Shown here piece by piece: positions 8,734-62,791 of a stretch of DNA of 64,000 bases. The translations under genes and the position numbers were made by a program. The stretch's first letter is position 1, and every line of letters starts with the position of its first letter. Under the pieces are notes generated by a model. The model was not told the origin of the DNA. It worked only from the letters and a program-made list of their open reading frames with translations, and ran no database searches. This DNA is from Cetorhinus maximus (Eukaryota), in NCBI RefSeq assembly GCF_964194155.1, contig NC_135891.1, positions 93,744,001 to 93,808,000 on the forward strand. Reading direction: 5' to 3'.

Positions 8734-10671
8734 AAACAAAAACAAAAATTGCTGGAAAAACTCAGTAGGTCTGACAGCATCTGTGGAGAGAAAGGCAGAG
8801 TTAACGTTTCGAGTCCGTATGGCAGGAAGGTCTGGGTCATGCTTACAGATAGACCGAAGGTGTTCCGCAAAGCGGTTACCCAGTCTGCATTTGGTCTCTC
8901 CAATGCAGAGGAAACCGCATTGGGAGCAGCGAATGCAGTAGACTAAATTGCGGGAAGTGCAAGTGAAATGCTGCTTCACTTGAAAGGATTGTTTGGGCCC
9001 TTGGATGGTGAGGAGAGGGGAAGTAAAGGGGCAGGTGTTGCACCTTCTGTGATTGCATGGGAAGGTGCCGTGAGAGAGGGTTGAGGTTTTGGGGGTGATA
9101 AGAGGAGTGAACCAGGGTGTCCCGGAGGGAGCAGTCCCTACGGAATGCCAACGGCGGGGGGTGAAGGGAAGATGTGTTTGGTGGTGGCATCATGCTGGAG
9201 TTGGCGGAAAGGGCGGAGGATGATCCTTTGAATGCGGAGGCTGGTGGGGTGAAAAGTGAGGACAAGGGGTTCTGGGAGGGAGAGGAAGGTGTGAGGACAG
9301 AGGTGCGAGAGATGGGTCGAACACGGTTGAGGGCCCTGTCAACCACCGTGGGTGCAAAACCTCAGTTAAGGAAGAAGGAAGACATGTGAGAAGAGCTGTT
9401 TTGGAAAGTGGCATCATTGGAGCCATTGCGACGGAGGTGAAGGAACTGAGAGAATGGGATGGAGCCCTTACAGGAGTCAGGGTGTGAGGAGTTGTAGTCG
9501 AGGTAGCTGTGGGAGTCAGTGGGCTTGTAATGAATATTGGTGGACAGCCTATCACTTGAAATTGAGACAGAGAGGTCAAGGAAGGGAAGGGAAGTGTCAG
9601 AGATGGACCATGTGAAAGTGATGGAGGGGTGGAAATTGGAAGCAAAATTAATAAATTTTTCCAGGTCCAGACAAGAGCATGAAACGGCACCGAAACAGTT
9701 ATCGATGTATCGGAGAAAGTGTTGTGGGAGGGGGCCTGAGTAGGACTAAAACAAGGAATGTTCCACATACCCAATAAAGAGACAGGCATAACTGTGGCCA
9801 ATGCAGGGCCACACCTTTTATTTGGAGGAAGTGAGACGAGTTTAAGGAGAAATTGCTCAGTGAGAGAACAAGTGGTGGATGGGGATTGTTCGGGCCTCTG
9901 TTCAAGGAAGAAGCGGAGACCCCTCAGACCATCCTGGTGGGAGATGCAAGTGTAGAGGGATTGGACGTCCATGTTGAAGAGGAGGCGGTTAGGGCCAGGG
10001 AACTAGAAATTGTGGATATGACGTAGGGCATCAGAGGAAACGTGGATGTAGGTGGGAAGAGACTGGACAAGGGGAGAGAGAACGGAGTCAAGATAGGAAG
10101 AAATGATTTCCGTGGGGCAGGAACAGGCTGACACGATCGGTCTACCAGGATAGTCCTGTTTGTGGATTTTGGGGAGGAGGTAGAAGCGGGCTGTCTGAGG
10201 TTGGGAGACTATGAAATTAGAAGCTGTGGAGGGAAGATCTCCAAGGGAGATGAGGTCAGTGACAGTCCTGGAAACAATGGCTTGATGTTCGGTGGTGGGA
10301 TCATGGTCCAGGGTTGCAGGATTTGCTCATTCTGCTTCTACTCCTAATGTCACCATTAGCACCTCCTTTAGCCAGTATCACCACCATCAACACCCCTTCC
10401 ACCTTTTGTTAATGACATATTTTGCAATCTCTCCTTTGCCTCCACCTATCACTGGCCTTCTATCCAGCTTCACCTGTCCCCCCCCCCCCCCCCCCCTTAA
10501 ACAGTACATATTTCATCACATTTTTACTTCTCTTTAGTTCTGAAGATGAGTCATACGAACTCGAAATGTTAATTCTGTCTCTCCACAGATGCTGTCAGAC
10601 CTGCTGAATTTTTCCAGCAATTTTTGTTTTTGTTTCAGATTTCCAGCATCTGCAGTATTTTGCTTTTATCT
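8734..10671 (-). mobile_element. Penelope-like retroelement (RT + GIY-YIG), 5'-truncated and internally deleted, with an inverted 3' terminal repeat at about 10313-10671 (+)
   Basis: Minus ORFs MDVQSLYT..HQDGLRGLRFFLE and HFLQIKGVA (RT), and QHFTCTSRNLVYCIRCSQCG..IGETKCRLGNRFAEHLRSI (GIY-YIG). Degenerate 14-bp TSD acatgcacgatttg (8720-8733) / acgcacacgatttg (10672-10685). Confidence 0.9.
10536..10574 (+). ncRNA. Hammerhead ribozyme motif (degenerate) in Penelope terminal repeat
   Basis: AGTT-CTGAAGA-T-GAGTC-ATACG-AACTC-GAAAT-GT-T-AATT; core present, with mismatches in stems II and III. Confidence 0.55.
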
Positions 10672-11416
10672 ACGCACACGATTTGGATGGGTATTACATA
10701 TGCACACTCTAGTGCGAAAATTGGAAGATTGAGATACCCAAAAAATCAAGCACATCTTTGTGGGAGAAGTGGGGCCCACACAAGACGAAACTATGCGTTC
10801 CTCCAGCTTTGGCCTTTTAAGCATCTCAAATTCACTCTGCACCACAATTGGTGACCGTGCCTTCAGTCATCTAGGCCCTAAGCCTGAAATTCCTTTGCTG
10901 AACCTCTGCAACTTCCCCTTTTAATACCCTTCTTAATACACACCTCTCGGAGATAAAAATTGATCTACACTAACAACGCGAAACAGACTGGTAACGAATC
11001 GATAACTGATGTTTCACTCATTCAACTGAAGTTCTCAGAACAATCGTTTTTGAAGTCTTTTTGGAAACTTGTTTCCCAGTCGCCTTTTATTCGGTTGAAA
11101 TTAAAAAATCTTGGCAACGTTTTCCAAGTCAATGGAAAATATAAAAGAAAGCTAGCGCTGTGAAAAATTGGCTGCCGATTTGCTGCAAACCCGTTTCGTG
11201 CTGCCGGTATGGACCCATTTACCTTTCTTTGCTCTGTGTCTGTTTATTCTGCTCCGGTGAAGCCCCTTGGGAGGTTTTTCCCTGTGTCGAAGGCACTATA
11301 TCAACGTAGGTTGGCATTGCTGTGTGAGAAGTGACTCACATCATAATGGGAGAAGTGATTTCAGTCGCTTTGCATCACAGGCTATGGCCAGTAATGGCAG
11401 GTTAATGTAAAATGCT

Positions 11417-11633
11417 AAAACAAAAACAGAATTACCTGGAAAAACCCAGCAGGTCTGGCAGCATCGTTGGAGAAGAAAAGTGTCGATGTTTCGAGTCCTC
11501 ACGACCCTTCATCAGAACTCGAAACGTCGACTCTTTTCTTCTCCACCGATGCTGCCAGACCTGCTGAGTTTTTCCAGGTAATTCTGCTTTTGTTTTGGAT
11601 TTCCAGCATCCGCAGTAGTTTTTTGTTTTTATA
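11417..11633. mobile_element. Palindromic Penelope-derived mini-element (two inverted terminal-repeat ends)
   Basis: Perfect 15-bp TSD ttaatgtaaaatgct at 11402-11416 and 11634-11648; about 80-bp arms are near-perfect reverse complements of each other. Confidence 0.9.
11481..11519 (-). ncRNA. Hammerhead ribozyme motif
   Basis: Minus strand reads AGTT-CTGATGA-A-GGGTC-GTGAG-GACTC-GAAAC-AT-C-GAC; the opposite arm keeps GAAAC-GTC-GACT, with a canonical GUC site. Confidence 0.65.
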
Positions 11634-12124
11634 TTAATGTAAAATGCTTGTCTACATTCTACTAAAAGAAATGATTGCGCTAATGACACATTTTAATAAA
11701 TGATGTAATTTCATGCCAGGCAGTAATTCTTAAGATCCTGTTAAGAATAACCAGGCCAGATATAAAAAAGGAAAAGTAACTTAATCCTCGTTCTTAAGAC
11801 TGTCAGTGACCGAATAAGATTAACCCAGTGAGCAGTCTTTACTGCTGCTATCGGTCTCTTTGTAACACTCGGCAGAGATTGAAGCCAGTTCCTGCACTCC
11901 ACCAAGTGCAGCTGACACAGAACAGAGAACATCAGCACTGAAACCAGGGGTAGGGGGGCGGGATACGTCGGCGCCACATGCAACAGGACAAACCCGACCG
12001 ATCAACAGAAGCTACGACAGATGGAGAAGAAATAAAAATCACACAATTTCAATTAGACAGGTAACTAATCTTGTGAATTCATGACAAGCCATTTTCTGTC
12101 TGATAGCAGTGGAATTATAATATA

Positions 12125-12290
12125 TAAAAGCAAAAAACTGCCGACGCTGCAAATCTGAAATAACAGAAAATGCTGGAAAAACTCAGAGCTCTGAAGAAGG
12201 GTCATACGGACTCGAAACGTTAACCTTGTTTCTTTCTCCACAGATGCTGTCAGACCTGCTGAGTTTTTCCAGCGTTTTCTAGTTTCTGTC
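12125..12290. mobile_element. Inverted Penelope-derived mini-element
   Basis: Minus-oriented tail (taaaagcaaaaaactgc..gctggaaaaactcag) joined to a plus-oriented HHR-containing repeat; weak TSD ataatata / ataacata. Confidence 0.85.
12187..12225 (+). ncRNA. Hammerhead ribozyme motif
   Basis: AGCT-CTGAAGA-A-GGGTC-ATACG-GACTC-GAAAC-GT-T-AACC; core intact, stem I weakened. Confidence 0.6.
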
Positions 12291-12529
12291 ATAACATACT
12301 ATTGACACAGATCTGGGCATTAAAATATATCGTAACCAATTTAATTCAATTCTAAAATTATTCGTGCACCAAATTGCTGGACACTGTTAATGGAACAACG
12401 TGACTATGTGAGCTTCTTTACCGTAACAAATCTGAAGGTTAGTGCTATTCTTACGTACAAATTACTTGCGATTCTGTTATTATATTGTCAGTTCCAGGTG
12501 CAGCCACAATCCAGCTTTGGTTATCGCGA

Positions 12530-12707
12530 TAAAAGCAAAAAACTGCGGATGCTGGAAATCCAAAACAAAAACAAAAATACTATTTCACCTCTCTTCTATT
12601 TTTACGAAGTTCTGTTGAAGGGTCATTCGGACTCGAAACGTTAACTGTATTCCTCTCCGCAGATGCTGACAGACCTGCTGAGTTTTTCCAGGTATTTTTG
12701 TTTTTGT
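12530..12707. mobile_element. Inverted Penelope-derived mini-element
   Basis: 14-bp TSD tttggttatcgcga (12516-12529) / tttggttatcgtga (12708-12721), differing by one CpG transition. Confidence 0.9.
12608..12646 (+). ncRNA. Hammerhead ribozyme motif, CUGUUGA core variant
   Basis: AGTT-CTGTTGA-A-GGGTC-ATTCG-GACTC-GAAAC-GT-T-AACT. Confidence 0.6.
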
Positions 12708-13138
12708 TTTGGTTATCGTGAGGTTGGGACAGGGCAGAAATCTTGCAGCTCTTCTTGTGCACAGAGCTTACTCATGGGAAAGGGTCCAACAATTGGAACA
12801 TAGTAAACAGCAGCGGAGTGAGAGAGTGGGGAAGAGATTTCACCATGGTCGGTCAGACAAGGCATTACGAGAAGACCTTTTGGACTGCGCCATTGAAACT
12901 CTAATCTGCTCAGCCTGAAGCATTAGGGATGCCGATCTGCTGGCTTGCAAGGTGACAGTGACATGCTGGATTACACTTGAATGCACTCTTTACACATATC
13001 ATAAACAAAGTAGCCAGGTTGTTTTTTTTTAAACATAATCTGCTGTCCTAAAGGCATTGACTTTTGTTTGGGTACAGTTCAACAAGCAGAGAGGGCTTTC
13101 TGGTACTTTGCCCAAGTAGGTCACTCTTCACACCTACC

Positions 13139-14067
13139 AGTTATGACGTGGCAGCTGATGTGCGCCAGGCAGACCAAATCCACAAGGGAAACTTGGTCGG
13201 GCTATCACAACGGTTTTGCAATTTCTATTTATTACCAGATGTGTGCACTGAATTCAGAAGTAATGAGTCCACTAAGACCGTTAAATATTTAAAAAATTAA
13301 ATTAAAATATTTATTAACAAAATAAAATATTACAAACACATACATAAGACTACAATTACTTACTAGTATAACAAATCCTAAAATTCCTAATTAACCGGAC
13401 TCCCATTTATACACCCCCTTTATGGCAACAGTTCAAAATAGATTTTAGATTTGAAACAAACCCAGTAAGTCAACACAGTACCCATTTGACAGTGGAGTTC
13501 CAAATGGCTTTTCCCCAACTCCAGTCACTTTACATAGCAGACTTATGCACAAATGGCTGGAGGCTTCTTGAAGGCTGTTTCACACACTCCTGTTAGATCT
13601 TACATGGCCTTCCGTACATAGCCTTTCATTCTCCTTTATGTATATTTATCTCTTTTTAATATGTAAATTATATTGTTCCATATGTGTTTGAAACTGTATC
13701 TTCCTCATAATATAAAAACTTCCATGTTGCTAATATTGTTAATAACCTTCAGGGAAAGTAAACACACTCCTTGGCCTTGCTTATCTGGCTAGTTGTAAAC
13801 AGACCTTTGAAATCCAAACAATCCCTTCACTTATCTAAAAATGCAATATCCCTTCACACCTTACATGCTAAGCCAGCATCCATGTTTACTGATTAGCATG
13901 TCAAACACATTTCTACACCTAACCTCTTTTGATTATTTCAAGCTTGCAGTCTATTTGGCTCTAAATGTTATTAAATCACACAGACAGAACCACCTATACT
14001 TACCCTCATAAATCTACTTCACAATAAACCAGAAAAATATTCTGAAAATTAGTATACTTTCATCACA
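13139..14067. mobile_element. Solo LTR, same family as 34957-36381
   Basis: About 930 bp, colinear with 34957-36381; (a)gttatgac...tttcatcaca termini; TSD not clear. Confidence 0.7.
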
Positions 14068-14619
14068 AGCCCTGATTTTACTAGACACCACACCACCACT
14101 GTCACCAGCAGCACATCACACACAGTCAGCAAGGTTACAAAATCAAGTCAAGGTCACTGTGCACCAAATCCAGGGTTTGGGTCTTTTTTGAGACTAGAGT
14201 CAAGTTTGGGGCTCCTAAACATATGCAAATTCCCTCAGGACTTTGAATGGATTTTGGGACATCAAGCTCTGTCCATACAGGAGGCCTCACTCTAATAAAC
14301 TGGACACATACTAATATCAGCTTAGTTGGCCATCTTAGAGGCAACACATTTCCCTTTTTTTTGTTTACAAGCATTGTCTCTTGTTTGCATTAGCTTTGTT
14401 GCACATATTTTGAGGACTGCGTTGTGCCTTTTTGACTTAAACGAATTTGACCCACACCTCCTTCAAGAGGGAATGCCGAAGGGCCACTGGGAAAAGTGTG
14501 GGAGAGTGGGATTGTCACTCCTGGATGTGGAGGGCCACTTTATGCTTGGCCAACATCTGAAGTTACAGAAACACCTTGTGCTTTGCATTGTGAAAGAAAA
14601 GCTGTTCCCATTTGCTGAT

Positions 14620-17839: not shown

Positions 17840-19720
17840 TTTCATTCACGGGATGTGGGCTTTGCTGGCTAGGCCAGCATTTATTGCCCATTCCTAGTTG
17901 CCCTTGAGAAGGTGGTGATGAGCTGCCTTCTTGAACGGCTGCAGTCTATGTGGTGTAGCTACACCCACAGTGCTGTTAGGAAGGGAGTTCCAGGATTTTG
18001 ACCCAGCGACAGTGAAGGAACGGCGATATATTTCCAGGTCAGGATGGTGAGTGACTTGGAGGGGAACTTGAAGGTGGTGCTGTTCCCATCTATCTGCTGC
18101 CCTCATCCTTCTAGATGGTAGTGGTCATGGGTTTGGAAGGTGTTATCTAAGGAGCCTTGGTGAATTCCTGCAGTGCATCTTGTAAATGGTACACACTGCT
18201 TTTTCCATGCGTTGGTGGTGGAGGGAGTGAATGTTTGTGGATGTGGTGCCCATCAAGCCGATTGCTTTGTCCTGGACGGTGTCAAGCTTCTTGAGTGATG
18301 TGGGAGCTGCACTCATCCAGGCAAGTGGGGAGCATTCCATCACATTCCTGATTTTTGCCTTGTAGATGGTGGTGTAGGGAGTGGTAGTGTGAGTCAGTTT
18401 CACCTCTGACTTCTGAGCGGTTCGAATCGCTCCCACTCCCTGGGTTCTAGACCTTGGACTTATTTGGGGTTGTGACAAAGTGCAGCAGACAACCGGTTTT
18501 GGTGCAAGAAAAACTGAGTTTATTGAAGTCACAAATGAACTTATAACATTAGGATTACACTGAGATTATACAGACCTACAAAGTACACTTAGTTAAGAAT
18601 GGGGAACACACAGCATAATGAGGGAAAAATCACACTACCCAAAACCTAACTAAATTGAACTAGGAGAGGTCAGGGATCATGCTCATCAACCCAGGGTTCC
18701 TTGACAGTTCGAAATCCAGCCAGGTAAGCCGGTTGCAGTTTTGGGGTACGCTCTTTGTGTCCTCTGGGGCCTGCCATCCCCACGCAGTCCTGGTCTGTGG
18801 AATCTGCGAAGGTTCTTCAGTTGAGTGGAGGACGCGGTTGTGGGTGGTCGATCTTCGTGGAGGGCTGTGGTTGCGGCCTTATTGTCTTCGGTTGAGCCGC
18901 CACCCCGTGCCCCTCGCCGTGATGTCGCCTGCGGGCCTGCAAAATCTCCAGATCTTCTTGCTTAAACTCTGTTTCAACCGCTCCCAACTGCTCACTGCCT
19001 GCTAGCTAGTTTCTCTCTCTCTCCTTCATAACTGACTGGTTTCTCTCTCTCACCCTTCTGCTAGCTGATTTCTCTCTCTCTCTCCTTCGCAACTGACTGC
19101 CCAGTTATACTGTCTTTCGAATTTCTTATCTCAATCCAAATCAAGGTTAGTTCTTTGTTTGATTTTGGTGGGCTTCCCCCAGTGATTGATGTCTCATTGT
19201 TTTTAATGGGCTCGCATGATGTTTATCATTGTCTTCCTGCCTAGTAACTAGTTTTTGAATTGAAAGCCGTTGTATGTGTGGAGTAATGATGGGTTCGCAT
19301 AACTGAATTGATGGTGCCTTCCTGCCTTAGTAGTTAGTAGCGATTATTTATGCAAGAGTTTGATGGGCTTCAGATTCGTGTGAGGTGAAGTCTTTCTCTG
19401 GGTTGATTGTATTAAAGGGAAGAATGTGTATTCTGTCTCCTCTCGTTGTCTGGTTTCAGGTAAAACAATCCACACTGTATTCAATAAGCCCGGGCATGTG
19501 CAGCCCCAGGCCTTCATGGGCCCAGCCTCCTGTCTGCAGAATTTTACATTTAATTCAACAGTTTAAAAGTCCAAAAGTCATATCCTTGTTGATGATATGA
19601 AAAATGTGGGAATTTTGAGAACCCTTCAGTGGATAGGCTTTGGGGAGTCAGGAGGTGAGTTACTCATCACAAGATTCCTAGCCTCTGACCTGCTTTTGTA
19701 GCTACAGTATTTATATATAT
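17840..19720 (-). mobile_element. CR1/L2-group LINE 3' part, interrupted by a solo LTR
   Basis: Minus ORF TIYKAKIRNVMECSPLAWMSAAPTSLKKLDTVQDKA..HSLHHQR..TIYKMHC; same family as 52700-53700 and 54010-55310. Confidence 0.8.
18373..19628 (-). mobile_element. Solo LTR inserted in a LINE
   Basis: TGTAGGG...CCCTTCA termini; 4-bp TSD GTGG at 18369-18372 and 19629-19632; removing it restores the LINE (gatggtgg|ataggctttgggg); minus-strand AATAAA near 18520. Confidence 0.85.
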
Positions 19721-23452: not shown

Positions 23453-23721
23453 AGAAGGTAGCAATTAAAATCATGGATAAAAAGCAACTGACCCAGAATT
23501 CACGGCAACTGTTCATAAGTGAAGTTCTGAGTATGGAGCAACTTCATCATCCAAATATCATCCGGTTGTATGAGATGCTGGAGACACATTCTCGACTGTA
23601 CCTGGTCCTGGAGTATGCAGATGGAGGAGATCTATTCACCAGGATCTCCACGCAGGGACGACTCTTGGAATATGAGAGTAAATTTATATTTGTTCAGATT
23701 GTATCGGCTGTCAAACATATG
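23453..23721 (+). CDS. NIM1K: NIM1-like kinase, coding exon 2
   Basis: Acceptor tttgtag|; (E)KVAIKIMDK...LHHPNIIRLYE..LVLEYADGGDLF..IVSAVKHM; phase-0 donor |GTAAGT at 23722. Confidence 0.93.
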
Positions 23722-28871: not shown

Positions 28872-29354
28872 AAATTGGGGTCCCATTTGGGAACAAAATG
28901 GGGGACTTCGCCCGGAGACCGGTTCTAACAGTGTACAAGAGTTACCTCTACCTTATTCAAAAAAGGAAGCCCTAAAGAGCCAGTTAGAAGGCCGCCTCCC
29001 AGAGAATTGCTGAGCCAGTCTTGCTACTGGAAAGTACAGCCTCAGGACCTCCATTTTGTCTCAACATTGGTTCCCCAAAGCCTGTAGGAAAATCTAGCCC
29101 TATTACTGTCAGAGAAGTAAAGAGAAAGGGATGATAATATTACAAATGTTAATCTTGGCTATGCTCTGGGGAGAAGTCATTACTGGAATAGAAAAATGGA
29201 CTTGGTGCTGGTGATAGCCCTGATATTGAGTGGTCCTGGTGCTCCTGGTATGTTTATTATAACTGAGAGACTATAAACTCCTCAATTTTCTCATCTGTTC
29301 CTTCCCTGATTGCTTCTTATTTTGCCTGCCTAACTTTCCATTTTCCTTTTTCAG

Positions 29355-30104
29355 CATGAGAACAATGTGATCCATCGGGATCTCAAGGCAGAAAATGTGT
29401 TCTACTCAGGTACTAACTGTGTGAAGGTGGGTGACTTTGGCTTCAGTGCACTGTCTCCTCTGCATGACCCCTTAGACACTTTATGTGGCTCCCCTCCATA
29501 TGCAGCCCCAGAGCTGTTTAGAGAGAAGAGCTACTTTGGAATCCACGTGGACATCTGGGCTCTGGGCATCTTACTATACTTCATGGTGACAGCAACTGTT
29601 CCTTTCCGTGCAGAAAACATCAGGACGCTGAAAAAGTGCATTTTACGAGGATCATACACAATTCCAGCCTATGTATCAGACTCCTGCCAGAAACTAATCC
29701 ATGGAATTCTTCAAACCATTCCAACAAACCGTTACACCCTGACCAACATCCTGGAAAGTCCATGGCTGAAGGGAGTGGAATGTCCAGAGCCATACCAACC
29801 ATTCCGCTTGAATCCAACCCACCTGGCCAGCTCTGTACCTCTAAACGAAGAGGAAAAGGAGGTGAAGAAATCATTGAGGAGCCTGGGAATCACAGAGAAG
29901 CACATCTACAATAATTCTACTTGGGACTGCCGCAGTCCCATAACTGGGACTTACCGCATCATTCTCCACCGGAGCCAAAAGAGGCACTATTCAGAGAGTC
30001 CTATCATGGTGAACAATTGTCCTGCAAGAACCAGGTTGAATGAAAGCAAGAAGAGGCGTTTCAAAGCAGGTGCACAGACCTCTAGGACGTGTCTGATTCT
30101 GTAA
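29355..30104 (+). CDS. NIM1K: NIM1-like kinase, coding exon 3 (last); spliced CDS 1308 nt = 435 aa
   Basis: Pyrimidine tract plus cag| acceptor; [43 protein letters not shown]; ends TSRTCLIL-stop. Exon phases join in frame (289+269+750 nt). Confidence 0.95.
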
Positions 30105-36381: not shown

Positions 36382-37189
36382 ATCATAGCTAATGCTTAAT
36401 GGTTTATATTGCCAAACCTAGAGAAAGGAAAGCAATAGTGTTCATTATAAAGAGTTAAAATGCATGCTACATTACTTAAGAGGGGTGAAGATGATGATAG
36501 TCAAAGAAAGAAGACAACAACCGTGGATGGTGACAATGACCATGGACAGCAGCTCGCCAGAACCACTCAGGGGGAAGGCAAAGCTACATGCGCCAATCTA
36601 TTAAGAGGAGTCATAGGTTTATGTTTTCATTTCGGAATAGCCTGGATTTGACAGTGTCATGTTGAATGAGCATAGCTCTGTAATAATGACAGTAGGTAAA
36701 AAAAAACCCAGCTAAGAATGTGTTACATTTAGGAATCAAGCTCTTATTGTAATTCTCCATGCTTAACCTTACTGTGGCATTAGTTGCATTACAATACGTG
36801 TTGTTTAATTAATTAAAGTGGTGTTAATTGGTGCATCTCTGTGTCTGTCTTTGATTGGGATGTCTTGTAAGTAGAGAAGTTTTCATAGTGTTCTGGTTGT
36901 TATGGGTTTAGGCTTGTGCACCTGTCAATAAAATAAAGACTGGATAGTGGAAGATGATTCAAAGGTAAGCTGTGACGCGAAAGTGCTGAAAATAGAGTTG
37001 ATACAACTAATATATTTCCGACTGACACTCCTTACAGATTTTGTAGATTTAGCATTCCATAATCTTCCATGGTTCTTACAATTCAGGTGTGCACAACAAT
37101 AATATCACAAATGTATGTAATCCAGATGACATCTGAGGACAGAGCTGACAGGGTATTGCTTCATTGTTAATCTCCAGTCTTGTCTGCCT

Positions 37190-40436: not shown

Positions 40437-42592
40437 CTAAGGTGCCTTATGTTTACGTTTCTGGATGCAACGTCTTGGTGCTGCCCCCTCGCTGGGAGTG
40501 GCATCTGAGACAGCCTGCTGACTCTGCTGTCCTGTTGGCCTCGATGACCTTGGTGGATGTCCTCTGGCCCGTGGAGTCTGTGTTGGCCCCGCCTGGGAGG
40601 GAGCTGCCAGTTCCACAGCTGGCATCTCCCCAGTCGTCTCAGCCTCACCGGATGCAACGGTCACTGGGAGAGGGGCGGAGGAGCTGCCGCCCTCATCCGG
40701 ACTGCCCTGAGAGAAGCCCGCAGAGATGACAGGCAGCTGCTGCGCCAATGTGAGGTTGCTTCGGACCTCCCTGCTCACCGTGGATGGATGGGCACCAAGC
40801 TGGGAAAGTTGATGCCCAGACCATCTCCCACACTGGCACTGACCAACTGAGGTCAATGCCGATGTGAGGGCTTGCTGGTCAGACCCTTGATGGGTCTCCT
40901 GGAGGAGCCTCTCCATGAGAGTTGCCACTCTCTCCATTGAGGACGCATGGCGCTCGGACATGTGGCTGATTTCTTTGCCGATCGTCCGCATAGACTCCTT
41001 CCCCACGGAGACCTAGCCAAGCATAGCCTCATGTAGCTCCCGCACACCCGGCCGCATTTCCTGCCCCTGCTGCGTCGCAGACGACTCCAGAGGCACATCA
41101 TCAGGCACCGACTGAGCATGTGCCTGGTCTTCTGCAGTTCTCTGACTGCTGGCGCCATGGGCACTCTGTCTGCCAGCTCCTCCAGCGACTGTGAAGTGCC
41201 CTCTGCTGTGCCCCGGGACACTAGCCGATGTTCTAATTCCCACCAAGGTGCTAGTATCTGCGCTGGTGCCTGCCTGGCAGAGAAGGTGTGACGCTGGTGA
41301 GACCTCAGGCCCTCAGGTGTGAGAGGGGGCCTCTGCTGCTCCTCCTCCAGCCCTGCTCCGCTGATGCTGAAAGGAAGAACAAGGACATTGGATCAGTTAA
41401 CGTGGAGACAATGACAAAGTGCATCCCTGTCCCCTGGATCCTTCCATAAGCAATGATCAAGCCATGTTGCAAAATTAAATCACTTAACATTCAGCACTGC
41501 TATTGCTGTTGGGAGAACAATGGTGACCTCACTGCTGGGCATAAATACCTGGCTGTGGCACCCCAGCCTCACCGACACTCGTGGACCTGGGTGCATGATG
41601 GCACCTCTCCAAATCCAGGGCCTCCTGCTCAAACCAGCTGAGAATGGCTAACTGCGCCTGGCCACTGCCAGTCCTCACACGCTCTGCTGCGTTATGAGCA
41701 TTCTTCTCCTGAAAATGAGAGAAGAGCATTGATTTGTACAAATTGTACATGGCACGGCCTACCCCCAACCAGAGTGGGACATGTCAGGGCTCCTCACCCC
41801 GCTGCTGTTCCCCACCCCCCGACCTTGGTATTTTTTTTAGGCACCACATGGTATATCCTTCCATAGCAAGGAGGCGCAAGATGTGGAGTGCAGAGGGCAG
41901 CAGATGGTTCATTGCCATGCCACCTTGAAGTTCCCCTCCCAGCATGTCATCACTCTGACTTGGACATTCCTGCAGTTCCAGCACTGCGCCTAGGTGCAGC
42001 TCCTCCAGGTTGCCTCCAAGCCAGTCATGTGGGACTCAGTGTAACACATGCTGCGGGCGCAGAACCCATCTCTTCATCACCCTCTCAGGCTGACCTCGGC
42101 ATGGGCAATATCTTCTGGCCCACCCAGCAAAGGACACATGCTATCAATGATTCAATGCAGTTGCTACACTCAGACTTGTGCAGGGGTGTGCAGCAGGGCA
42201 GGGGGCCGTAGGGGGGAAAGCCAACCTGCTGGGTTAAGTGACCAATGCCAACACTGTCCTCACCCTTCCCAAGCGCAAGAAGTCGTTGAAGCGTCTGCGA
42301 CACTGGATCCAGGTGCACCGCACCACGTCGTGGGAGCTCACCACCTCCTCCCAGGCAGTTTTCATAATGTAGGGGGCCTCCTCCTTCTGTCCTGGGGAAG
42401 CAGCACCTCTCACCGTGCTGCCACCTCCTCGAGGAGGGCAGCAAGGCAGTCATCGGAAAAACGAGGGGCACGCGGCCTCCCCGCCCTACCTCCTGGCTTG
42501 GCCTGCCCCAGATGGCCTACCCTCTGGACTGGCCTACCCTCCGGACTTGCGTCACCTCCATTGCCCCTCTGCAGAGCCCTTCGTCCAGCCAT
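40437..42592 (-). pseudogene. Harbinger Myb/SANT-like DNA-binding protein gene, 3 exons, disrupted
   Basis: Exon 1 42592-42264 (RAPRFSDDCLAALLEEV, then in-frame stop, ..TWIQCRRRFND, GTGAGG donor). Exon 2 41708-41549 (EKNAHNAAERVRTGSG). Exon 3 41366-40437 (low-complexity tail). Confidence 0.8.
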
Positions 42593-43219
42593 TGTGAGCA
42601 GCCTTTCCAAGGCTGCCAGGCCTTCCTTTATACAGGCCGCCGGGTTGCCATTGGTCCCGGCGGGCTGAGCGCACCCGCCCACTCCCATTATGCATGGGAG
42701 TTGTGAAGTATGCTGGGCGGGCCTTAATTGGCCCGCCTGCATAAAATAGTGGTGCGGACCCGATCGCCGTCCACGCCCGCTCTGCCCCACCACCAGCCAG
42801 ACAATTCAACCCCATCTCTCTCTTTGGTCACAGTCTGAGGCTGAACCACACTGTGTGTAACCGTGCTATCTCATTTAACCCTATCCAAGACTACCTATTA
42901 CCGCCTCCCTAACATCGCCTGCCTCAGTCCATCTGCTGCTGAAAGCCTAGCCGATGCATTTGTTGCTTCCAGGTTTGGCTATTCCAATGCTCTTCTGGCC
43001 AGGCTCTCACTTTTCACCCACACTAAACTTCAACTCATCCAGAAACTCTGCCACCCCAATTTTAACTCACATCCAGTCCAGCTCACTCATCACCCCTACA
43101 TGGCTTCTTAGCTGGCAATGGTCTGTGAGTGGCCGAGAACACACACATCATGCAGTGGTTCACATCTTGCATTCCATGGTTCCTCCCATTGAAACTTTGG
43201 CTCTGACCAAGGAGGAGGA

Positions 43220-43419: not shown

Positions 43420-43807
43420 GTGAGTGTTAGGCCAGGGATAGCGGGAGGGTAAAGGATAGTTACCGAGTTAGGGGGAGGGTAACTCAACCTCACCTTTATA
43501 TTTAATTGACCGGGGGGAGGGGGAATGAGAAATCATTTCGCACTGGATTGCTTTGCTTGAAGAAATGCTGGAAGCAGATTCAATGGTAATTTTCAAAGTG
43601 GAATTGGATAAATGCAGGGCCAGGGAGAGAAATCATGGGCCCTTCCTTCTCCCCTCCCCGCCCTTTAACCCTCACCCCCCGCCCCCCCCCCAAATGGTGC
43701 ATGATACCTTTACCCTTTCAACATTCACCATCAACTCATCAAACAATCACAGTTATAATCTCCATTGTTGGCATCTGCTTACAAATATCGTCTGATTATA
43801 TATGCAG

Positions 43808-46028
43808 ATAAAAGCAAAAAAACTGCGGATGCTGGAAATCCAAAACAAAAATAAAAATACCTGGAAAAACTCAGCAGGTCTGGCAGCATCTGTGGAGAGG
43901 AACACAGTTAACGTTTCGAGTCCGTATGACTCTTCAACAGAACTAAGAAAAAATAGAAAAGAGGTGAAATATAAGCTGGTTTAAGTTGGGGGGGGGGGGG
44001 GGGGGGGGTGAGGGGGAGGGGGTGGTGGGACAGGTAGAGCTGGATAGAGGGCCAGTGATAGGTGGAGATAGCCAAAAGATGTCAAAGACAAAAGGACAAA
44101 GAGGTGTTGGCGGTGGTGTATTAGCTAAGGAATGTGATAATAGGTGATATTAAGGGTAGAAAGCAGGACGAGCAAGGTACAGATAGCCCTAGTGGGGGTG
44201 GGAGGGATTGAAATAGGCTAAAAGGTAGAGATAAAATAATGGATGGAAATACATTTAAAAATAATGGAAATAGGTGGGAAAAGAAAAATTTATATAAATT
44301 ATTGGAAAAAAGGGGGATCGGAAAGGGGGTGGGGATGGAGGAGAGAGTTCATGATCTAAAATTGTTGAACTCAATATTCAGTCCGGAAGGCTGTAAAGTG
44401 TCTAGTTGGAAGATGATGTGCTGTTCCTCCAGTTTGCGTTGAGCTTCACTGGAACAATGCAGCAGGCCAAGGACGGACATGTGGGCATGAGAGCAGGGTG
44501 GAGTGCTGAAATGGCAAGCGACAGGGAGGTCTGGGTCATGCTTGTGGATAGACCGAAGGTGTTCCGCAAAGCGGTCACCCAGTCTGCGTTTGGTCTCTCC
44601 AATGTAGAGGAAACCGCATTGGGAGCAGCGAATGCAGTAGACTAAATTGAAAGAAGTGCAAGTGAAATGCTGCTTCACTGAAAGGAGTGTTTGGGCCCTT
44701 GGACGGTGAGGAGAGGGGAAGTAAAGGGGCAGGTGTTGCACCTTCTGCGGTTGCATGGGAAGGTGCCGTGGGAGGGGGTTGAGGTGTAGGGGGTGATGGA
44801 GGAGTGGACCAGGGTGTCCCGGAGGGAACAATCCCTGTGGAATGCCGCCGGGGGGGGCGTGAAGGGAAGATGTGTTTGGTGGTGGCATCATGCTGGAGTT
44901 GGCGGAAATGGTGGAGGATGATCCTTTGAATGCGGAGGCTGGTGGGGTGATAAGTGAGGACAAGGGGGATCCTATCATGGTTCTGGGAGGGAGAGGAAGG
45001 TGTGAGGGCGGATGCGCGAATGATGGGCCGGACACGGTTGAGGGCCCTGTCAATCACCGTGGGTGGAAAACCTCGGTTAAGGAAGAAGGAAGACATGTCA
45101 GAGGAACTGTTTTTGAAAGTGGCATCATTAGAACAGATGCGACGGAGGCAAAGGAACTGAGAGAATGGGATGGAGTCCTTACAGGAAGCGGGATGTGAGG
45201 AGCTGTCGTTGAGGTAGCTGTGGGAGTCGGTAGACTTGTAATGAATAATGGTGGACAGTCTATCAACAGAAATTGAGACAGAGAGGTCTCAAGAAGGAAG
45301 GAAGGGAAGTGTCAGAGATGGACCATGTGAAAATGATGGAGGGGTGGAAATTGAAAGCAAAATTAATAAATTTTTCCAGGTCCAGACGAGAGCATGAAGC
45401 AGCACCGAAGCAATCATCGATGTACCGGAGAAAGAGTTGTGGGAGGGGGCCTGAGTAGGACTGGAACAAGGAATGTTCCACATACCCATAAAGAGACAGG
45501 CATAACTGGAGCCCATGTGGGTACCCATAGCCACACCTTTTATTTGGAGGAAGTGAGAGGAGTTTTAGGAGAAATTGTTTAGTGAAAGAACAAGTTCAGC
45601 CAGACGGAGGAGAGTAGTGGTGGATAGGAATTGTTTGGGCATCTGTTCGAGGAAGAAGCGGAGAGCCATCAGACCATCCCGGTGGGGGATGGAGGTGTGG
45701 AGGGATTGGATGTCCATGGTGAAGAGGAGGCGGTTGGGGCCAGGGAACCAGAAATTGTTAATATGATGTCAGGTGTCAGAGGAATCACGGATGTAAGTGG
45801 GAAGGGACTGGACAAGGGGAGAGAGAATGGAGTCAAGATAGCTAGAAATGAGTTCCATGGGACAGGAACAGGCTGACACGATCGGTCTGCCGGGACAGTC
45901 CTGTTTGTGGGTTTTGGGTAGGAGGTAGAAGCTGGCCGTCCGAGGTTGGGAGACTGAGGTTGGAAGCTCAGGTGTGGAAGGAAGATCTCCAGAGGAGATG
46001 AGGTCAGTAACAGTCCTGGAAACAATGA
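43808..46028 (-). mobile_element. Penelope-like retroelement, 5'-truncated, with intact 3' end
   Basis: RT motifs (GVAMGTHMGSSYACLFMG, FLRYIDDCFG) and GIY-YIG ending SGLNIEFNNFRS-stop at 44349; 3' terminal repeat with HHR; 11-bp TSD tatatatgcag at 43797-43807 and 46029-46039. Confidence 0.93.
43906..43944 (-). ncRNA. Hammerhead ribozyme motif, CUGUUGA core variant
   Basis: Minus strand AGTT-CTGTTGA-A-GAGTC-ATACG-GACTC-GAAAC-GT-T-AACT, on the same strand as the Penelope ORF. Confidence 0.62.
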
Positions 46029-47012
46029 TATATATGCAGCATGGGCCATTAATATTGAGAGTAGCAAAGATATAATGCAGTGTTAGTTTGTGTACACCCT
46101 ATAGGTGATCCCAATGTGGCAATTAAACAAACCACAAAGTACACATTTTAGCTTAACAGCATCATGCAATATTGTTAATGTAACAGGAAAATGTCTCATT
46201 AGTTATTTATAACACTGCAGGTGATAACACTGATTTTGGTGACTGCCTCGTTGCAATATATGTACATGGTGATAAAAAATTCAAATTTGGGAAAAGCTTC
46301 AATACTTGCAAACCAGATTGCAAGATAACCTTTCAGGTTTTGTTTTCTGTGTTTTGACTACCTGTCTTGTATAGAAAAGAAAGACCATTTCCATGCTCCA
46401 GCTCACACTGTTTCATTGTTGGAGAGTTGTAGAAGGGAAAGAAGAAGAGAGTTGTTGGGGGTGGGTTTGTGGCTGGAGGAGGAGAGGGGATGGTCCCATT
46501 CACGTGCTGCTGCCTAAGCTCTCTCCTTTGTCCCTGGACAGACTGTCACAGCTACTCACTCACCTTGCTCAGGATATCTCTGTATCACTAGCAGTGAAGT
46601 TCCAATTCCCTGGGAGTGGTGAGTGCTGCAGATGTGGACAACAGCCGGGTCAACCCTGGCATGAAGCTGAGTGACTGCTCCTCCGGTCTTGCTCCAGCCT
46701 TGTTACCAGCGGAGACTCCCTGCTGTTCTTTCATTTTCTGATTCTTCTCTTTGGCCTCCTGGAGATGTTGTCACAAATCGTTTAGTGCAGTTGAAAGACT
46801 CCTGCAGGGTGGCCTTAACCTTTTGCTGTTGAAAACCCTGATGTTTTGTAATAGGTATACAAACAATTACGCCATCAGAAACGCTGTTCTGCAAATCTCC
46901 CCATTGCTGGTCCCTGAAGAATATTGGTTTCATTTTAATGTATATTTAAGTTCACAAACCCAATTACTTATCTGATTCCCTTGAAACTATAAACAGACTA
47001 GTTTCGATTCCA

Positions 47013-47187
47013 TCACTGGCCCTCTATCCAGCTCTACCTGTCCCACCCCCCCTCAACCAGCTTATATTTCACCACATTTCTATATTTCCTTAGTTCTGAT
47101 GAAGAGTCATACGGACTTGAAACGTTAACTGTATTCCTCTCCGCAGATGCTGTCAGACCTGCTGAGTTTTTCCAGCTATTTTTGTTT
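47013..47187 (+). mobile_element. Penelope terminal-repeat mini-element in NDUFA11 intron 1
   Basis: Perfect 14-bp TSD tagtttcgattcca at 46999-47012 and 47188-47201. Confidence 0.9.
47092..47130 (+). ncRNA. Hammerhead ribozyme motif with canonical core
   Basis: AGTT-CTGATGA-A-GAGTC-ATACG-GACTT-GAAAC-GT-T-AACT. Confidence 0.7.
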
Positions 47188-47382
47188 TAGTTTCGATTCC
47201 AGTTGTTTTAACTGCCCCCTGCCCCCAAAGGATACCTGCAAAAATGAAAGCCCAGGAAATCATTGCTGCTTTGTGTCTCATCCCTGCGTGTATTTCCATA
47301 TTAACTTTCATCCATCTCTAGCACACTGTTGCTGATGGAGATTATGGATGACGGAGGCTTTATTTCCTACCCTCCCTCTCAT

Positions 47383-47383
<1 letters not shown>

Positions 47384-47413
<30 letters not shown>
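47384..47413. repeat. (CT)n microsatellite
   Basis: Direct reading. Confidence 0.9.
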
Positions 47414-47416
<3 letters not shown>

Positions 47417-52699: not shown

Positions 52700-53700
52700 A
52701 AACTCATTTATTGCCCATCCCCAATTGCCACCTTCTTGAACCACTCCAGTCCATGTGGTGTTGGTACAGGGAGGGAGTTCCAGGTTTTTGACCTAACAGT
52801 GTAAGAATGATGATAAAGCTCCAAGTTAGGATAGTGGGTGACTTGAAGGGAAACAGCAGGCTGGTGGGATTCCCATGCATCTGCCCCCCGTTGTCCTTCT
52901 GGGTGGTAGAGGTTGTGGATTTGGAAGGTGCTGTCGAAGAAGGCTTGATGAGTTGCTGCACTGCATCTTGTAGATAGTACATGCTGCTGCCACTATGTCG
53001 GTGGTGGAGGGAATGAACGTTTAAGGTAGTGCATAGGGCGCTGATCAAGCGTGTTGCTTTATTTTCGTTTCTTGAATTGTTAGAGCTGCACTTTCCAGGC
53101 AACAGGAGAGTATTCTATCACATTCTTGACTTGTGCCTTATAGATGGTGGACAGGCTTTGGGGGAAGTTAGGAGGTGTGCTACTCACTGAAGAATTACTG
53201 GCCTCCAACCTGCACTTGTAGCCACAGAATTTATATGGCTTGTCCATTAAGTTTCTGGACAGTTATCCTCCAGGTGTTGATAGTGAGGAATGTCTAGTGA
53301 AGGTGTTAAATTTTCTATTGTTGGAGATATTCATTGCCGAGCACTCATGGTATGAAATTTATTTATTTGTTCAAGAGATGTGGGTGTTGCTGGCTCGGGC
53401 CATCACTTATTCACCATTCCTAATTACCCTTGAGAAGGTGGTGGTGAACTGCTAAAGTTTCTGTGGCATAGATACACTCACAGTGCTGTTAGAAAGGGAG
53501 TTCCAGGAATTTGACCCAGTGACAGTGAAGGAACTTGCCACCTATCAGTCCAAGCCTGAATGTTGTCCAGGTCTTGTTGCCTGCAGACATGGACTATTTC
53601 AGTTTCTGAAGAGTTGTGAATGGTACTGACACTGCAATTATCAGCAAACATCCCCACTTCTGATGTTATGTTGGAGGGAAGGTCATTAATGAAGCGGTTC
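52700..53700 (-). mobile_element. CR1/L2-group LINE fragments (family of 17840)
   Basis: tttattgcccatccccaattgcc tail; minus ORF NVHSLHHR. Confidence 0.75.
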
Positions 53701-54009
53701 TGCTGCAGAGAGACCAGTGGTTGATGCCAATGTTTGGGTCTGAAGAGATAAAGTAGTATAATTAAGTGTTGGAACAGAAGGAGATTGAGGAGAAGATGGT
53801 TAGCTTAATGGAGGAAATGTGTGCTGAGGGCCAAGGAGGAAATGGAGAGACCGGATGCATTCAAGCTCTGAATCATTACCACAGGTGAAAGGGTGGACTT
53901 CATTAAGTGTATCAATTATTAAATAATATAGATATATTAAGTAGATCTAGATTATTCAAGTCTACCAAGAATGCAAGATTAAAGGACGTAGTTAGAATTT
54001 AAAAAAATT

Positions 54010-55310
54010 CTTTCACAGGATGTGGGCGTCGCTGGCTAGGCCAACATTTATTGCCCATCCCTAATTGCCCTCGAGAAGGTGGTGGTGAGCCCGTGTCTTG
54101 AACCACTGCAGTCCATGTGATGTAGGTACACCCACATGGCTGTTAGGAAGGGAGTTCCAGGATTTTGACCTAGCGAAAGTGAAGGAACAGTGGTATAGTT
54201 CCAGGTCAGGAAGGTGTGTGACTTGGAGGGGAACTTGCAGGTAGTGGTGCTCCGATGCATCTGCCACCCTTGTCCTTCTTGGTGGTAAAGGTTGTTGGTT
54301 TGGAAGATGCTGTCGAAGGAGCCTAGGTGAGTTGCTGCAGTGCATCTTGTAGATGGCACACACTGCTGCTATTGTGCGTCAGTGGTGGAAGGAGTGAATG
54401 TTTGTGGATGGGATGCCAATCAAGCGGACTGTTTTCTCCTTGATGGTGTCAAGCTTCTTGAGCTCCATTCATCCAGGCCAAGTGGCGAGTATTCCATCAC
54501 AATCTTGACTTGTGCCTTGTGGATGGTGGACAGGCTTTGGAGAGTCAGGAGGTGAGCCACTTGCCACAGAATTCCCAGCCTCTGACCTGCTTTTGTAGCT
54601 ACAGCCTTTATACAGCTGGTCCAGTTCTGTTTCTGGTCAATTGTAGCCCCCAGAATGTTGCTGGGGGGAATTAAGCAATGGCATTGTATGTCAAGGGGAA
54701 ATGGCTGGATTCTCTCTTGTTGGAGATAGTCATTGCCTGGCGTGGTGTGGTGCAAATGTAGCTTGCAACTTATCAGCCCAAGCCTGAATGTTGTCCAAGT
54801 TTAGCTGCATTTAAACATGGACTGCTTCAGTATCTGAGGAGCCACGAATGGTGCTGAGCATTGTGCTGTCATCAGTGAACATCCCCACTTCTGACCTTAT
54901 ATTGGAGGGAAGGTCACTGATGAAGTAGCTGAAAATGGTTGGGCCTAGGACACTACCCTGAGGAAGTCCTGCAGAGAGACCCTGCAACTGAGATGACTGA
55001 TCGCCAACAACCGCAACCATCTTCCTTTGTGCTAGGTATGACTGCAACCAGTGGCGAGCTTTCCCCTGATTCCCATTGACTCCAGTTTTGCTTGGTGTCA
55101 CACTCGGTCAAATGCTGCCTTGATGTCAAGGGCAGTCACTGTCACCTCACCTTTGGAGTTCAGCTCTTTTATCCATATTTGGGCCAAAACTGCAATTAGG
55201 TCAGGGCCTGAGTGAGCAGCTTATTTCTGAGTAAGTTCTGCTTGATAGCACTGTTGACAATTCCTTCCATCACTTTGCTGTTGACGATTCCTTCCATCGC
55301 TTTGCTGTTA
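54010..55310 (-). mobile_element. CR1/L2-group LINE 3' part
   Basis: Minus ORFs WLQSYLAQRKMVAVVG..GLPQGSVLGPTIFSYFISDLP..MFTDD and IYKMHCSNSPRLLRQHLPN. Confidence 0.88.
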
Positions 55311-60759: not shown

Positions 60760-62500
60760 ATTGAGATGAGCATGAAGCTCTGTCAGGAAACATTTATGGA
60801 TAACATTATTCAGCCTAACAAACTATCAATATAATCTGCATCTGTATTCTAGTTCATAGTCAATGAAAATGATGAACAGCAGTAGTTCCAATGCAGAGCC
60901 TAATGGAGTCTCAATCCAATCCATTTCCATTAGCAACAGTTTACATAGTTTTAATCAGTTATTGACCCAGTGTAGTAACTCCATAATCCAATGAAATCTA
61001 CTGTTTCTTTTATCGATTAGCTGTCTGATGGTGCTTAATCATAGACCTTTTGAGAATCAAGGTCAATATATAAATTATACTTCATTCAACATTCTCATCA
61101 CTTCTTTAAATAATTCAATGTTAACTTGCATCCTGCTTCATTAATTTATCGAACCATATTGGGAATTTCTAATGGTGACTAAATGCTCTGTGATTGTACA
61201 TCACATCTATTGCTTTCCAACAGCTTTCATGCTGGTACACCTATAATTTATAGCATCCGTCCATGGGTATCGATGAGTTGTTGAATATTGGTCAGCTCCA
61301 TTCATTTAAATGCACAAATATTATCCAAAAACCATTTTCGGGTAGCTTGTGATGAGACAATTTTAGACCCACACCTATTCTGTTGTACTGAGACAGTGGT
61401 ATCATCCTCAGCAATGAAAGCCATTGTAAGGTCTTTGGTCATATTTTTATCTTTGTCCCAATACACCACTCACTTGACTTTTAATTGCAATGGACTAGTT
61501 TTCTGCCTGACTTCTCCACTTGGATCTTTTATTTTTCCACATCTTTTCAGTATTGTCAATGTTGCATTAAAAAATTCTGAAAAATTTTAAATCAATGAAG
61601 CAATGGTCTGTAATGAGATCTTTGAAACCAAAAAAAACCTTTTCTGCCTCTTCAGTAATTGGCATAGATTTTTCTGTTTGAATTCAACTAATTCTTAAGT
61701 GTACATGTGCCAGTGAGTATAAGCCTGTATGGTAGTTACTCTGATTTCACTTGGTCTAAACATATGATAGAATTAAACAATATTACTGTTGGGTATTAAG
61801 TGATCTCTATATAAAGTCAATATGATCAATCACTAGAGTTCTGTTTGAATTGTGACCCCCTGCTCAATTTTGGTAAGCAGATCTCCTGTCAAACTGACTA
61901 ATCCCGATAGGACATTAGCTGAATTATTAGAATGATTGGGGATGTGGTGGGCTGTTTGACAAATTTGGGGTTATTCAGGATGGATACTGGCCTCAGAATT
62001 GTACCCTTTTAATTTTGTGCCTATTTTGAGGTTCTTGAACTGTATCATGTACAGTAGCCAGCAGTGGAACAAACTTTCTAGTAATAATCAGAAAGAGTGG
62101 TGAACAAATGTGTATTCCAGGGGTTCCCTGCAGTGACAGATGTGGAATTGGGAAATTTCCAATTGTGACAATCCTCAGGTTTATTTAAGAAGAAGTATGA
62201 GTTTGAAGAGTATCTGAATTAACAGTTTATCCCACCCTCTTTTCTTCCAGTTGGATTTGAGAGCCATTTCTCTTGAGTTAAACTGGAGGGCTCACAATTG
62301 AAGGACACTGATTAATGTTCAGTGGCTGACTGGTTGTTGACTGCTGTTCTTAATGTTGTCCACTAGATAGCACCAGATAGATGGTTTTGTGAACATTTAT
62401 TTCCCATGATTTGTGATTTAACAAGTAACATTTGAAACTCTGCATGCTGATTTCTATGTCCCAGCTTGCTTTTGAAAAGCTTCCAGTATGCTTTAGTGTA
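60760..62500 (-). mobile_element. Very old LINE (RT) remnant
   Basis: Minus strand near 60850-60910 gives a PLGSALELLLFIIFID-like RT motif; boundaries approximate. Confidence 0.4.
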
Positions 62501-62699
62501 ATGGTTTCTCATAGTATGAGCTCTGAGCATTTGTGATGTGGATACTACAAGGTTTCACATATGTTGCTCTCTGTATTGTGTGTCCAGTTAATGTTTTTGA
62601 GTATGTGGTGATCTCTCCTGAGCAGGTGCTGAATATTTCAAGCTCTGCATTGGTGTACTATTTGTTTCAAAAATGCGAGAAAGGACTTAACAATTTTAA

Positions 62700-62791
62700 A
62701 ATCAGAAAAATGCTGGCAATTCAGATCTGGCAGCATTTGTGTAGATAGAAATAGAGTTAATGTTTCAGGTTGATTGCCTTGCATCAGAACT
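62700..62791 (-). mobile_element. Old Penelope terminal-repeat fragment with a degenerate HHR
   Basis: Minus strand AGTT-CTGATGC-A-AGG-CAATCAA-CCT-GAAAC-AT-T-AACT followed by atgctgccagatctgaattgccagcattttt. Confidence 0.6.

Follow-up and report, generated by a model that had tools for sequence, protein, structure and literature searches.

A 64,000-nt window of the shark Cetorhinus maximus genome (contig NC_135891.1, positions 93,744,001 to 93,808,000) holds eight insertions that are, in all likelihood, dead-on-arrival products of a Neptune-type Penelope-like element (PLE), a retrotransposon that carries a hammerhead ribozyme motif close to its 3′ end. The evidence consists of the encoded protein domains, the colinearity of all inserted pieces with the 3′ end of one parent, two fixed 3′ ends, the head-to-head arrangement of the inserted arms and the presence of target-site duplications (TSDs). 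The priming steps of the mechanism proposed below are inferred by analogy with a PLE of another clade. On the features tested, the elements are endonuclease-containing (EN+) PLEs with a minimal hammerhead.

Two fixed 3′ ends and the parent element

Positions within the element are numbered from the predicted cleavage site of insertion A (after 43910 = 0), and every arm was aligned to the 3′ end of A. The eight insertions (A to H; Table 1) comprise 13 arms, all of which are colinear with the parent 3′ end and terminate at one of two places. The long end is shared by six arms, each finishing in TTTTAT at +102 to +104, and the remaining seven finish in a T-rich tract at about +61 to +69, leaving approximately 35 nt between the two ends. 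Five of the eight insertions (B, C, D, E and H) are composites in which one long-ended arm is joined head-to-head to one inverted short-ended arm. Insertion A is long-ended only, F and G are short-ended only, and no insertion pairs two arms of the same type.

The 5′ ends are more variable. Long arms start inside the open reading frame (ORF; A) or at −266, −12, +36, +50 and +81. Short arms start at −35 (C and D), −62 (E), −150 (F), about −35 (G) and about −33 to −38 (H); the short arm of B extends for about 1.6 kb and contains a jump at −19, where a 3-nt CAT overlap at 8822 leads into hammerhead loop II before the short end is reached. Ten arms span the cleavage site, and none of the 13 starts at +1. 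Where tested, partner arms were each other's closest or joint-closest match (94% in B and 94% in C, with the C arms showing 63–87% identity to other insertions), and such partners from a single subfamily are as expected from one event.

Clear TSDs of 8–15 bp were found at six insertions (A, B, C, E, F and G). A preliminary description of this stretch had assigned each insertion its own TSD, which holds for these six but not for D, where the duplication is weak, or for H, where it is at chance level. The same description gave the short inserts as 170–250 bp, whereas we measured 93–216 bp.

At the short ends of B (8725-8740) and E (12705-12715), the first bases of the target match the continuation of the element (CA.AT in B and TTTGG in E), hinting at primer-template homology. 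The tail between the two ends can pair with an invariant GAUGCUG...CCUGCUG block (+21 to +35) to give a long hairpin (43828-43890 on the minus strand; 10587-10657 and 11549-11616 on the plus strand); the loop of this hairpin lies close to the short end, and the long end falls beyond its base. This hairpin folded in all three long arms tried (z of −1.6, −3.1 and −1.2), with two-sided changes in none of its 19 pairs, and is a candidate RT-binding element (RT, reverse transcriptase).

Table 1. Positions of the eight insertions, their arms and their target-site duplications in the window (UTR, untranslated region; pLTR, pseudo-long terminal repeat).
Feature	Position	Strand	Remarks
A, 5′-truncated PLE, likely Neptune-type, long-ended arm only	43808..46028	−	RT core, linker, GIY-YIG, hammerhead-bearing 3′ pLTR, complete tail
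A, TSD	43797-43807 / 46029-46039		11 bp exact
A, broken ORF	44349..46028	−	RT (KGVAMGT, RYIDD), CNRRRCNTC linker, CCHH GIY-YIG; several frameshifts and stops
A, minimal hammerhead	43906..43944	−	CTGTTGA core; predicted cleavage after 43910
A, tail of ~35 nt	43808..43842	−	from short 3′ end (about +68) to long 3′ end (+102)
B (8734-10669), inverted short-ended arm	8734..10314	−	broken RT/GIY-YIG ORF; 86.8% identical to A over 1512 nt
B, long-ended arm	10323..10669	+	3′ UTR, hammerhead 10536-10574, tail
B, TSD	8725-8733 / 10677-10685		9 bp exact
C (11417-11632), inverted short-ended arm from −35	11417..11519	−	hammerhead 11519-11481, GTGAG-loop subfamily
C, long-ended arm from −12 to tail	11517..11632	+	3′ half of hammerhead, GUC triplet
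C, TSD	11402-11416 / 11634-11648		15 bp exact
D (12124-12289), long-ended arm	12124..12186	−	+36 to tail end; without hammerhead
D, short-ended arm from −35	12187..12289	+	hammerhead 12187-12225
D, TSD			weak: 8 bp with 1 mismatch
E (12529-12710), long-ended arm	12529..12580	−	+50 to tail end
E, short-ended arm from −62	12581..12710	+	hammerhead 12608-12646, A6 to U
E, TSD	12516 / 12708		11 bp exact, 14 with one mismatch; partly overlaps T-rich end of arm
F, single short-ended arm from −150	47013..47187	+	hammerhead 47092-47130
F, TSD	47001-47012 / 47190-47201		12 bp exact
G, old single short-ended arm from about −35	62699..62791	−	CTGATGC core, different stem II
G, TSD	TTAAAATT		8 bp exact, above 99th percentile of 300 random flank pairs
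H, decayed	3676..3778	.	21-nt long-ended tail piece 3758-3778 (+) head-to-head with short-ended arm 3757-3676 (−)
H, TSD			at chance level

Insertions A and B encode an RT, followed by a CX4CxxC linker (CNRRRCNTC in A, CNHRRCNTC in B) and a GIY-YIG endonuclease domain with a CCHH motif; the Pfam GIY-YIG match (E 3.5e-4) lies below the curated cut-off. A CX2-5CxxC linker upstream of the endonuclease is described as a mark of Neptune and Nematis, and not of Penelope/Poseidon (Craig et al., 2021, PMC8557442), and the PLEs of vertebrates are given as Neptune and Poseidon only (bioRxiv 10.64898/2026.07.22.740005). Read from these motifs, the parent is likely to be a Neptune-type EN+ PLE.

A 142-aa query piece recovered 67 relatives among 307 candidates, and the closest named proteins came from rays and sharks (Mobula, Hypanus, Rhincodon and Stegostoma) at 52–65% identity, in support of an elasmobranch host. 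The order of RT, linker and GIY-YIG is the same in these elasmobranch relatives. In tblastn searches with five named relatives, both ORFs were recovered as colinear pieces in different frames that start inside the RT region. Since both ORFs are 5′-truncated and frameshifted, and contain stops, neither copy is autonomous, contrary to the preliminary description, which had taken them for autonomous RT/GIY-YIG copies. Self-comparison of the window revealed an upstream direct repeat for neither A nor B, and among solved structures there was no match to a named relative.

An invariant ATG at +21, considered as a candidate ORF start, opens a frame that continues through the tail in A and B and stops in C; the resulting peptide is carried by none of the 67 relatives. 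When the translated non-coding 3′ end was used as a query for copies in other species, only two matches were obtained. The N-terminus of Heterodontus francisci protein P0069 holds a translated repeat 3′ end (23/28 identical) and that of P0058, from the same species, holds the repeat-derived FPASA. Both N-termini appear to represent gene-model contamination or exonisation.

Proposed priming at two RNA sites and the start of the shortest arms

In the mechanism that we propose, the RT/GIY-YIG protein would nick both target strands 8–15 bp apart, by analogy with Anolis Poseidon (PMC11167929), and from each 3′-OH reverse transcription would be primed at one of two places inside the RNA, at about +67 and +103, with one target strand priming at +103 and the other at +67. 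Most complementary DNAs (cDNAs) would stop early, and their ends would then be joined, often via a few bases of homology. The short inserts carry the hammerhead and little else because the motif sits 67–140 nt from the proposed priming sites. The hammerhead itself would most plausibly serve to process tandem transcripts, with uncleaved RNA acting as template; cleaved RNA as template was rejected, given the absence of arms starting at +1. The earlier proposal that PLE machinery produced the short inserts is supported. The inserts are colinear pieces of the parent 3′ end, mostly in the inverted head-to-head form known from PLEs (PMC8557442; PMC3846280).

Several of these elements have precedents. 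A one-sided tail of 30–40 bp and inverted 5′-truncated copies are described as standard PLE features (PMC8557442; PMC3846280; PMC2377424), and single or opposite-strand minimal hammerheads as derivatives of truncated PLEs (PMC4209133). According to Frangieh et al. (2024; PMC11167929), the Anolis Poseidon protein cuts and extends both target strands in vitro, and the tail is bounded by two internal sites from which reverse transcription begins; mutating the hammerhead was without effect on insertion in vitro, and the ribozyme cleaved only with protein.

Other observations weigh against this explanation of the insertions. The window holds no full-length or tandem copy that would show the extent of the pLTR, the start of the ORF and the promoter. 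Priming at two sites was demonstrated in another PLE clade, with AC-rich start sites there and U-rich ones here, and the clade of the present elements was assigned from motifs. The arms overlap by 18–370 nt in four of the five composites, and such overlap could arise only with strand displacement or from a pair of RNAs or of pLTR copies. For head-to-head repeats, self-priming on an antisense template is the explanation preferred in PMC3846280. Finally, D and H lack convincing TSDs.

A further reading adds to this mechanism, and we regard it as possible although short of probable: the shortest arms would copy an RNA with its 5′ end at the first base of helix I of the hammerhead (−35). Such an RNA could represent the start of the full PLE transcript, yielding a strong-stop-like cDNA of ~102 nt, or a solo-repeat transcript of ~140 nt, resembling that of a short interspersed element (SINE), that is mobilised in trans. 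Four of the seven short-ended arms (C, D, G and roughly H) start within a few nt of −35, as against none of the six long-ended arms. The simulated chance is 0.0002–0.018 for four of seven within 6 nt and 0.004–0.09 for three of seven within 4 nt, both being post hoc values with ranges set by the assumed mean length. In insertions A, B and F, −35 lies within TTAGTTC, which resembles an initiator and is preceded at a distance of about 29 nt by a TATA-like (T/C)ATATTT; such a pair is met at a rate of 0.0005 per base. TATA plus initiator sequences are described in a rotifer pLTR (PMC3846280).

The same starts can be accounted for in other ways, and the sample is seven arms. Microhomology can explain the junction of D, where AGTTCTGA and the inverted continuation of the long arm, AGGTCTGA, are alike at 7 of 8 positions; the arms of C share 3 nt at their junction, the start of G overlaps its TSD, and H is too decayed for placement. 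Position −35 also reads as a splice acceptor (a pyrimidine tract plus TAG; 0.0008 per base), and the Penelope intron of D. virilis is described as ending at helix I (PMC4209133).

More speculatively, transcription of elasmobranch Neptune elements might start at the first base of helix I, in which case proximal priming would give a fixed strong-stop-like cDNA of ~102 nt and distal priming would be carried out by the other strand; we consider this doubtful at present. If true, a single mechanism with two primers would account for the tail, for the arms joined head-to-head and for the abundance of inserts that hold just the hammerhead. Solo terminal repeats could then supply this pathway with a SINE-like ribozyme RNA of 140 nt. 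The literature that we searched contained nothing joining Penelope, strong-stop and hammerhead.

State of the hammerhead motif

The motif is laid out as AGUU / CUGANGA / one extra base / 5-bp helix II / GAAA-C-G-U-H / AACU, which fits the minimal type-I hammerhead as described for PLEs (PMC4209133). The motif shares with that type the lack of loop III, the extra base after A9, the G10.1-C11.1 pair and the palindromic 15.2-16.2, and the preliminary description was right to recognize a minimal hammerhead of PLE terminal repeats. All seven motif copies that it reported were recovered where it had placed them and on the same strands, and in A the motif shares the strand of the ORF, with the predicted cleavage site 102 nt from the 3′ end (earlier estimate, about 100 nt).

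A sequence model built on these copies gave 12 matches up to E 1 in the window. Seven were the copies themselves, with E-values of 1e-16 to 1e-33 that lie well beyond chance and are circular for these seven. Two half-motifs, at 8821-8734 on the minus strand (in B) and from 11517 onward on the plus strand (in C), and the decayed insertion H at 3676-3778 (E 1e-3) had previously been overlooked; the remaining two matches, with E above 0.2, were dropped as chance. A generic hammerhead core pattern matched six times against 0.97 expected, with four matches being family copies and two, at 51786 and 62152, lying outside the family. A 35-letter pattern drawn from the copies matched five times against 0.00 expected, a comparison that is likewise circular. 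In the Rfam comparison suggested by the preliminary description, no family, hammerheads included, reached its gathering threshold anywhere in the window. Nine weak Rfam matches were found within 8600-12900, none of them to a hammerhead; the top ones, microRNA-precursor models on the palindrome of C, were rejected as an inversion artefact.

The core (CUGANGA...GAAA...UH) is intact in four of the seven copies (B, C, D and F). It is mutated in A and E, which read CTGTTGA (A6 to U), and in the old copy G, which reads CTGATGC (A9 to C). Changes such as these would be expected to harm cleavage. All 11 pairs form only in A (43906), E (12608) and F (47092), and F is the sole copy that combines an intact core with 11/11 pairs; the consensus earlier said to be shared by all copies is thus matched with full pairing in these three, while the other four deviate. 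The extra base after A9 is present in all seven. Pair 10.1-11.1 is G-C in five copies, G-U in one and A-U in one, and pair 15.2-16.2 is C-G in four of seven. Across the 77 helix cells, 89.6% are paired, compared with 19–42% when the partners are slid.

Stem II and its loop differ among subfamilies A/F, C and G, with most pairs kept. Covariation in stem II had been proposed on this basis, but the two two-sided pair changes observed, both contributed by G, do not exceed shuffles (reached by 158 of 500, for 7 related copies), and the difference between GAGTC/GACTC and GGGTC/GACTC, cited as an example, is a one-sided A-U to G-U change. The C-terminus of Stegostoma tigrinum protein P0007 (LMKGLRPKRQL) is the translation expected from read-through into a hammerhead. 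For pair 10.2-11.2, which is A-U or G-U in the window copies, the codons for its Gly and Pro point to G-C; this single case hints indirectly at cross-species covariation.

The folding energies of the hammerhead region were uninformative (z of −1.3 to +1.35, all seven copies lying within 1.4 sd of shuffles), as were those of dimers, whose dimer form was not the cofold minimum in any of six copies tried. With loop III absent and a palindromic AC/GU, cleavage would be expected to require either dimer formation or the assistance of a protein. A second motif copy is described as necessary to build helix III (PMC4209133; review, PMC6765202).

It is conceivable, though we think it rather unlikely, that the motif has lost its catalytic activity in this family and persists as a relic, simply because it belongs to the terminal repeat. 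The three mutated cores are consistent with this, and the A6-to-U change common to the independent insertions A and E may come from the source element, although conflicting diagnostic sites among A, E and F indicate that it may instead be homoplasy. Failure to cleave was reported for eight of nine Xenopus dimers (bioRxiv 10.64898/2026.07.22.740005), and the indifference of in vitro insertion to hammerhead mutants (PMC11167929) points the same way. The persistence of most stem II pairs across subfamilies argues against a relic, as does the lower divergence of the core relative to the whole 3′ flank (3/77 vs 55/427, p=0.012; without G, 2/66 vs 36/372, p=0.05; copies not independent in either comparison). 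In favour of a relic, a 29-nt block of the downstream flank, picked post hoc, is as conserved as the core (10/198 vs 3/77). On the test named in the preliminary description, conservation of core nucleotides above the flanking repeat, the outcome is therefore weakly positive.

Alternative origins, related systems and genomic surroundings

Head-to-head arms could also arise without two-strand priming, through fold-back self-priming with either an antisense template or the first cDNA, as has been suggested for rotifer PLEs whose junctions are palindromic (PMC3846280). Inverted homology of 3–8 nt exists at the C and D junctions, and overlap between arms is expected under fold-back. This process leaves unexplained why the second arm is always at the fixed short end and why F and G are short-ended alone. 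Moreover, the inverted arms in B, C, D, E and H hold sequence that is absent from the long arm and so cannot be copies of it, and we consider fold-back an unlikely origin.

Very improbable, and already contradicted for these eight loci, is the view that the short inserts are non-LTR retrozymes, that is, self-cleaving, circularising, non-autonomous units reinserted by PLE RT: none of 12 tandem-repeat rows holds the motif, self-comparison shows dispersed and inverted copies only, none of the 13 arms starts or ends at the cleavage site or is circularly permuted, the 5′ ends scatter between −266 and +81, in contrast to 3′ ends that coincide with the two ends of the parent, and the 4-bp helix I and absent loop III are unlike canonical retrozyme hammerheads (PMC4209133; PMC7229834). 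The preliminary description had favoured such retrozyme-like mini-derivatives, and the inserts are indeed non-coding and of similar size to retrozymes, which a preprint reports from one chondrichthyan genome, together with many vertebrate monomers and an origin from PLE pLTRs (bioRxiv 10.64898/2026.07.22.740005). What we find are colinear parent 3′ ends with the minimal ribozyme type. A short, non-autonomous RNA whose 5′ end is at helix I, the reading considered above, might nevertheless lie behind the short inserts, and the data of the preprint on its chondrichthyan genome may include the family described here.

Under the preferred reading of the insertions as truncated PLE products, they resemble several known systems. 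The pLTR hammerheads described for fish Neptune, Poseidon and Xena elements show the same loss of loop III, palindromic 15.2-16.2, extra base between 9 and 10.1, G10.1-C11.1 pair and 4-bp helix I, and are mostly single copies or close opposite-strand pairs; helix II has 5 bp here, compared with 7–8 bp in the S. mansoni families (PMC4209133). Minimal hammerheads in fish PLEs and dispersed truncated copies have thus been known since 2014 (PMC4209133). The Neptune clade, as presented by Craig et al. (2021, PMC8557442), has the same order of RT, linker and CCHH GIY-YIG, 5′ truncation, inverted copies, tail and variable TSDs, whereas our window has no tandem or full-length unit. The linker also occurs in Nematis, and it is the reported restriction of vertebrate PLEs to Neptune and Poseidon (bioRxiv 10.64898/2026.07.22.740005) that makes Neptune the likelier clade.

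In the Poseidon element PAc of Anolis carolinensis, two end points likewise define a tail downstream of the hammerhead, and inserts likewise read through the uncleaved ribozyme (PMC11167929). PAc belongs to another clade, and its start sites fall within the beginning of the ORF, in a stem-loop rich in A and C, whereas those found here are U-rich. The portions of that report that we read do not describe long-plus-short end pairing inside one insertion. Non-LTR retrozymes are also short and non-coding, with type-I hammerheads and kinship to PLE pLTRs, but are described as head-to-tail tandems expressed as circles (PMC7229834; bioRxiv 10.64898/2026.07.22.740005), in contrast to the single or head-to-head truncated ends and minimal motif found here.

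A shark-specific account was not found in the literature searched, the scope of which lay outside Repbase, Dfam and subscription journals; the word "shark" is absent from PMC8557442 and PMC7229834, and two supplementary files of PMC4209133 contain no shark or ray term. The origin of PLE inverted repeats and of the one-sided tail is described as still open (PMC8557442). Because the inserts are so short, their two ends and the junction between arms can still be read, and with eight insertions in 64 kb, a genome-wide tally could test the opposite-strand use of two RT start sites in vivo and in a second clade. In annotation, these palindromic inserts can be mistaken for microRNA precursors, and parts of the repeat are already present, in translated form, among predicted proteins of sharks.

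Four PLE insertions (B to E) lie within 4 kb (8734-12710), compared with four in the other 60 kb, and this interval is possibly a local insertion hotspot. Downstream of them lie three coding exons of a plus-strand gene for a serine/threonine kinase (17440, 23458-23650 and 29334-30104; Pfam Pkinase E 1e-34 in the last), so that B to E precede the first of the exons recognized; we take the gene to resemble NIM1K. A histone-fold coding exon at about 4160-4480 on the minus strand (Pfam CBFD_NFYB_HMF, E 0.007), presumably similar to POLE4, points away from the kinase gene.

Other mobile elements are present in the window. A frameshifted DDE_Tnp_4 (Harbinger/PIF-like) transposase occupies 38853-40099 on the plus strand, and an ORF convergent with it (42410-42805, minus strand), which has no Pfam match, is presumably its Myb/SANT partner. 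A related piece occurs at 32664-33245 on the minus strand, and an RT fragment of the long interspersed element (LINE) type, matching Pfam RVT_1, at 1509-2360 on the plus strand. Self-comparison also revealed dispersed repeat families at 17841-18372 and 52731-54925, and at 13140-14068 / 34958-36382.

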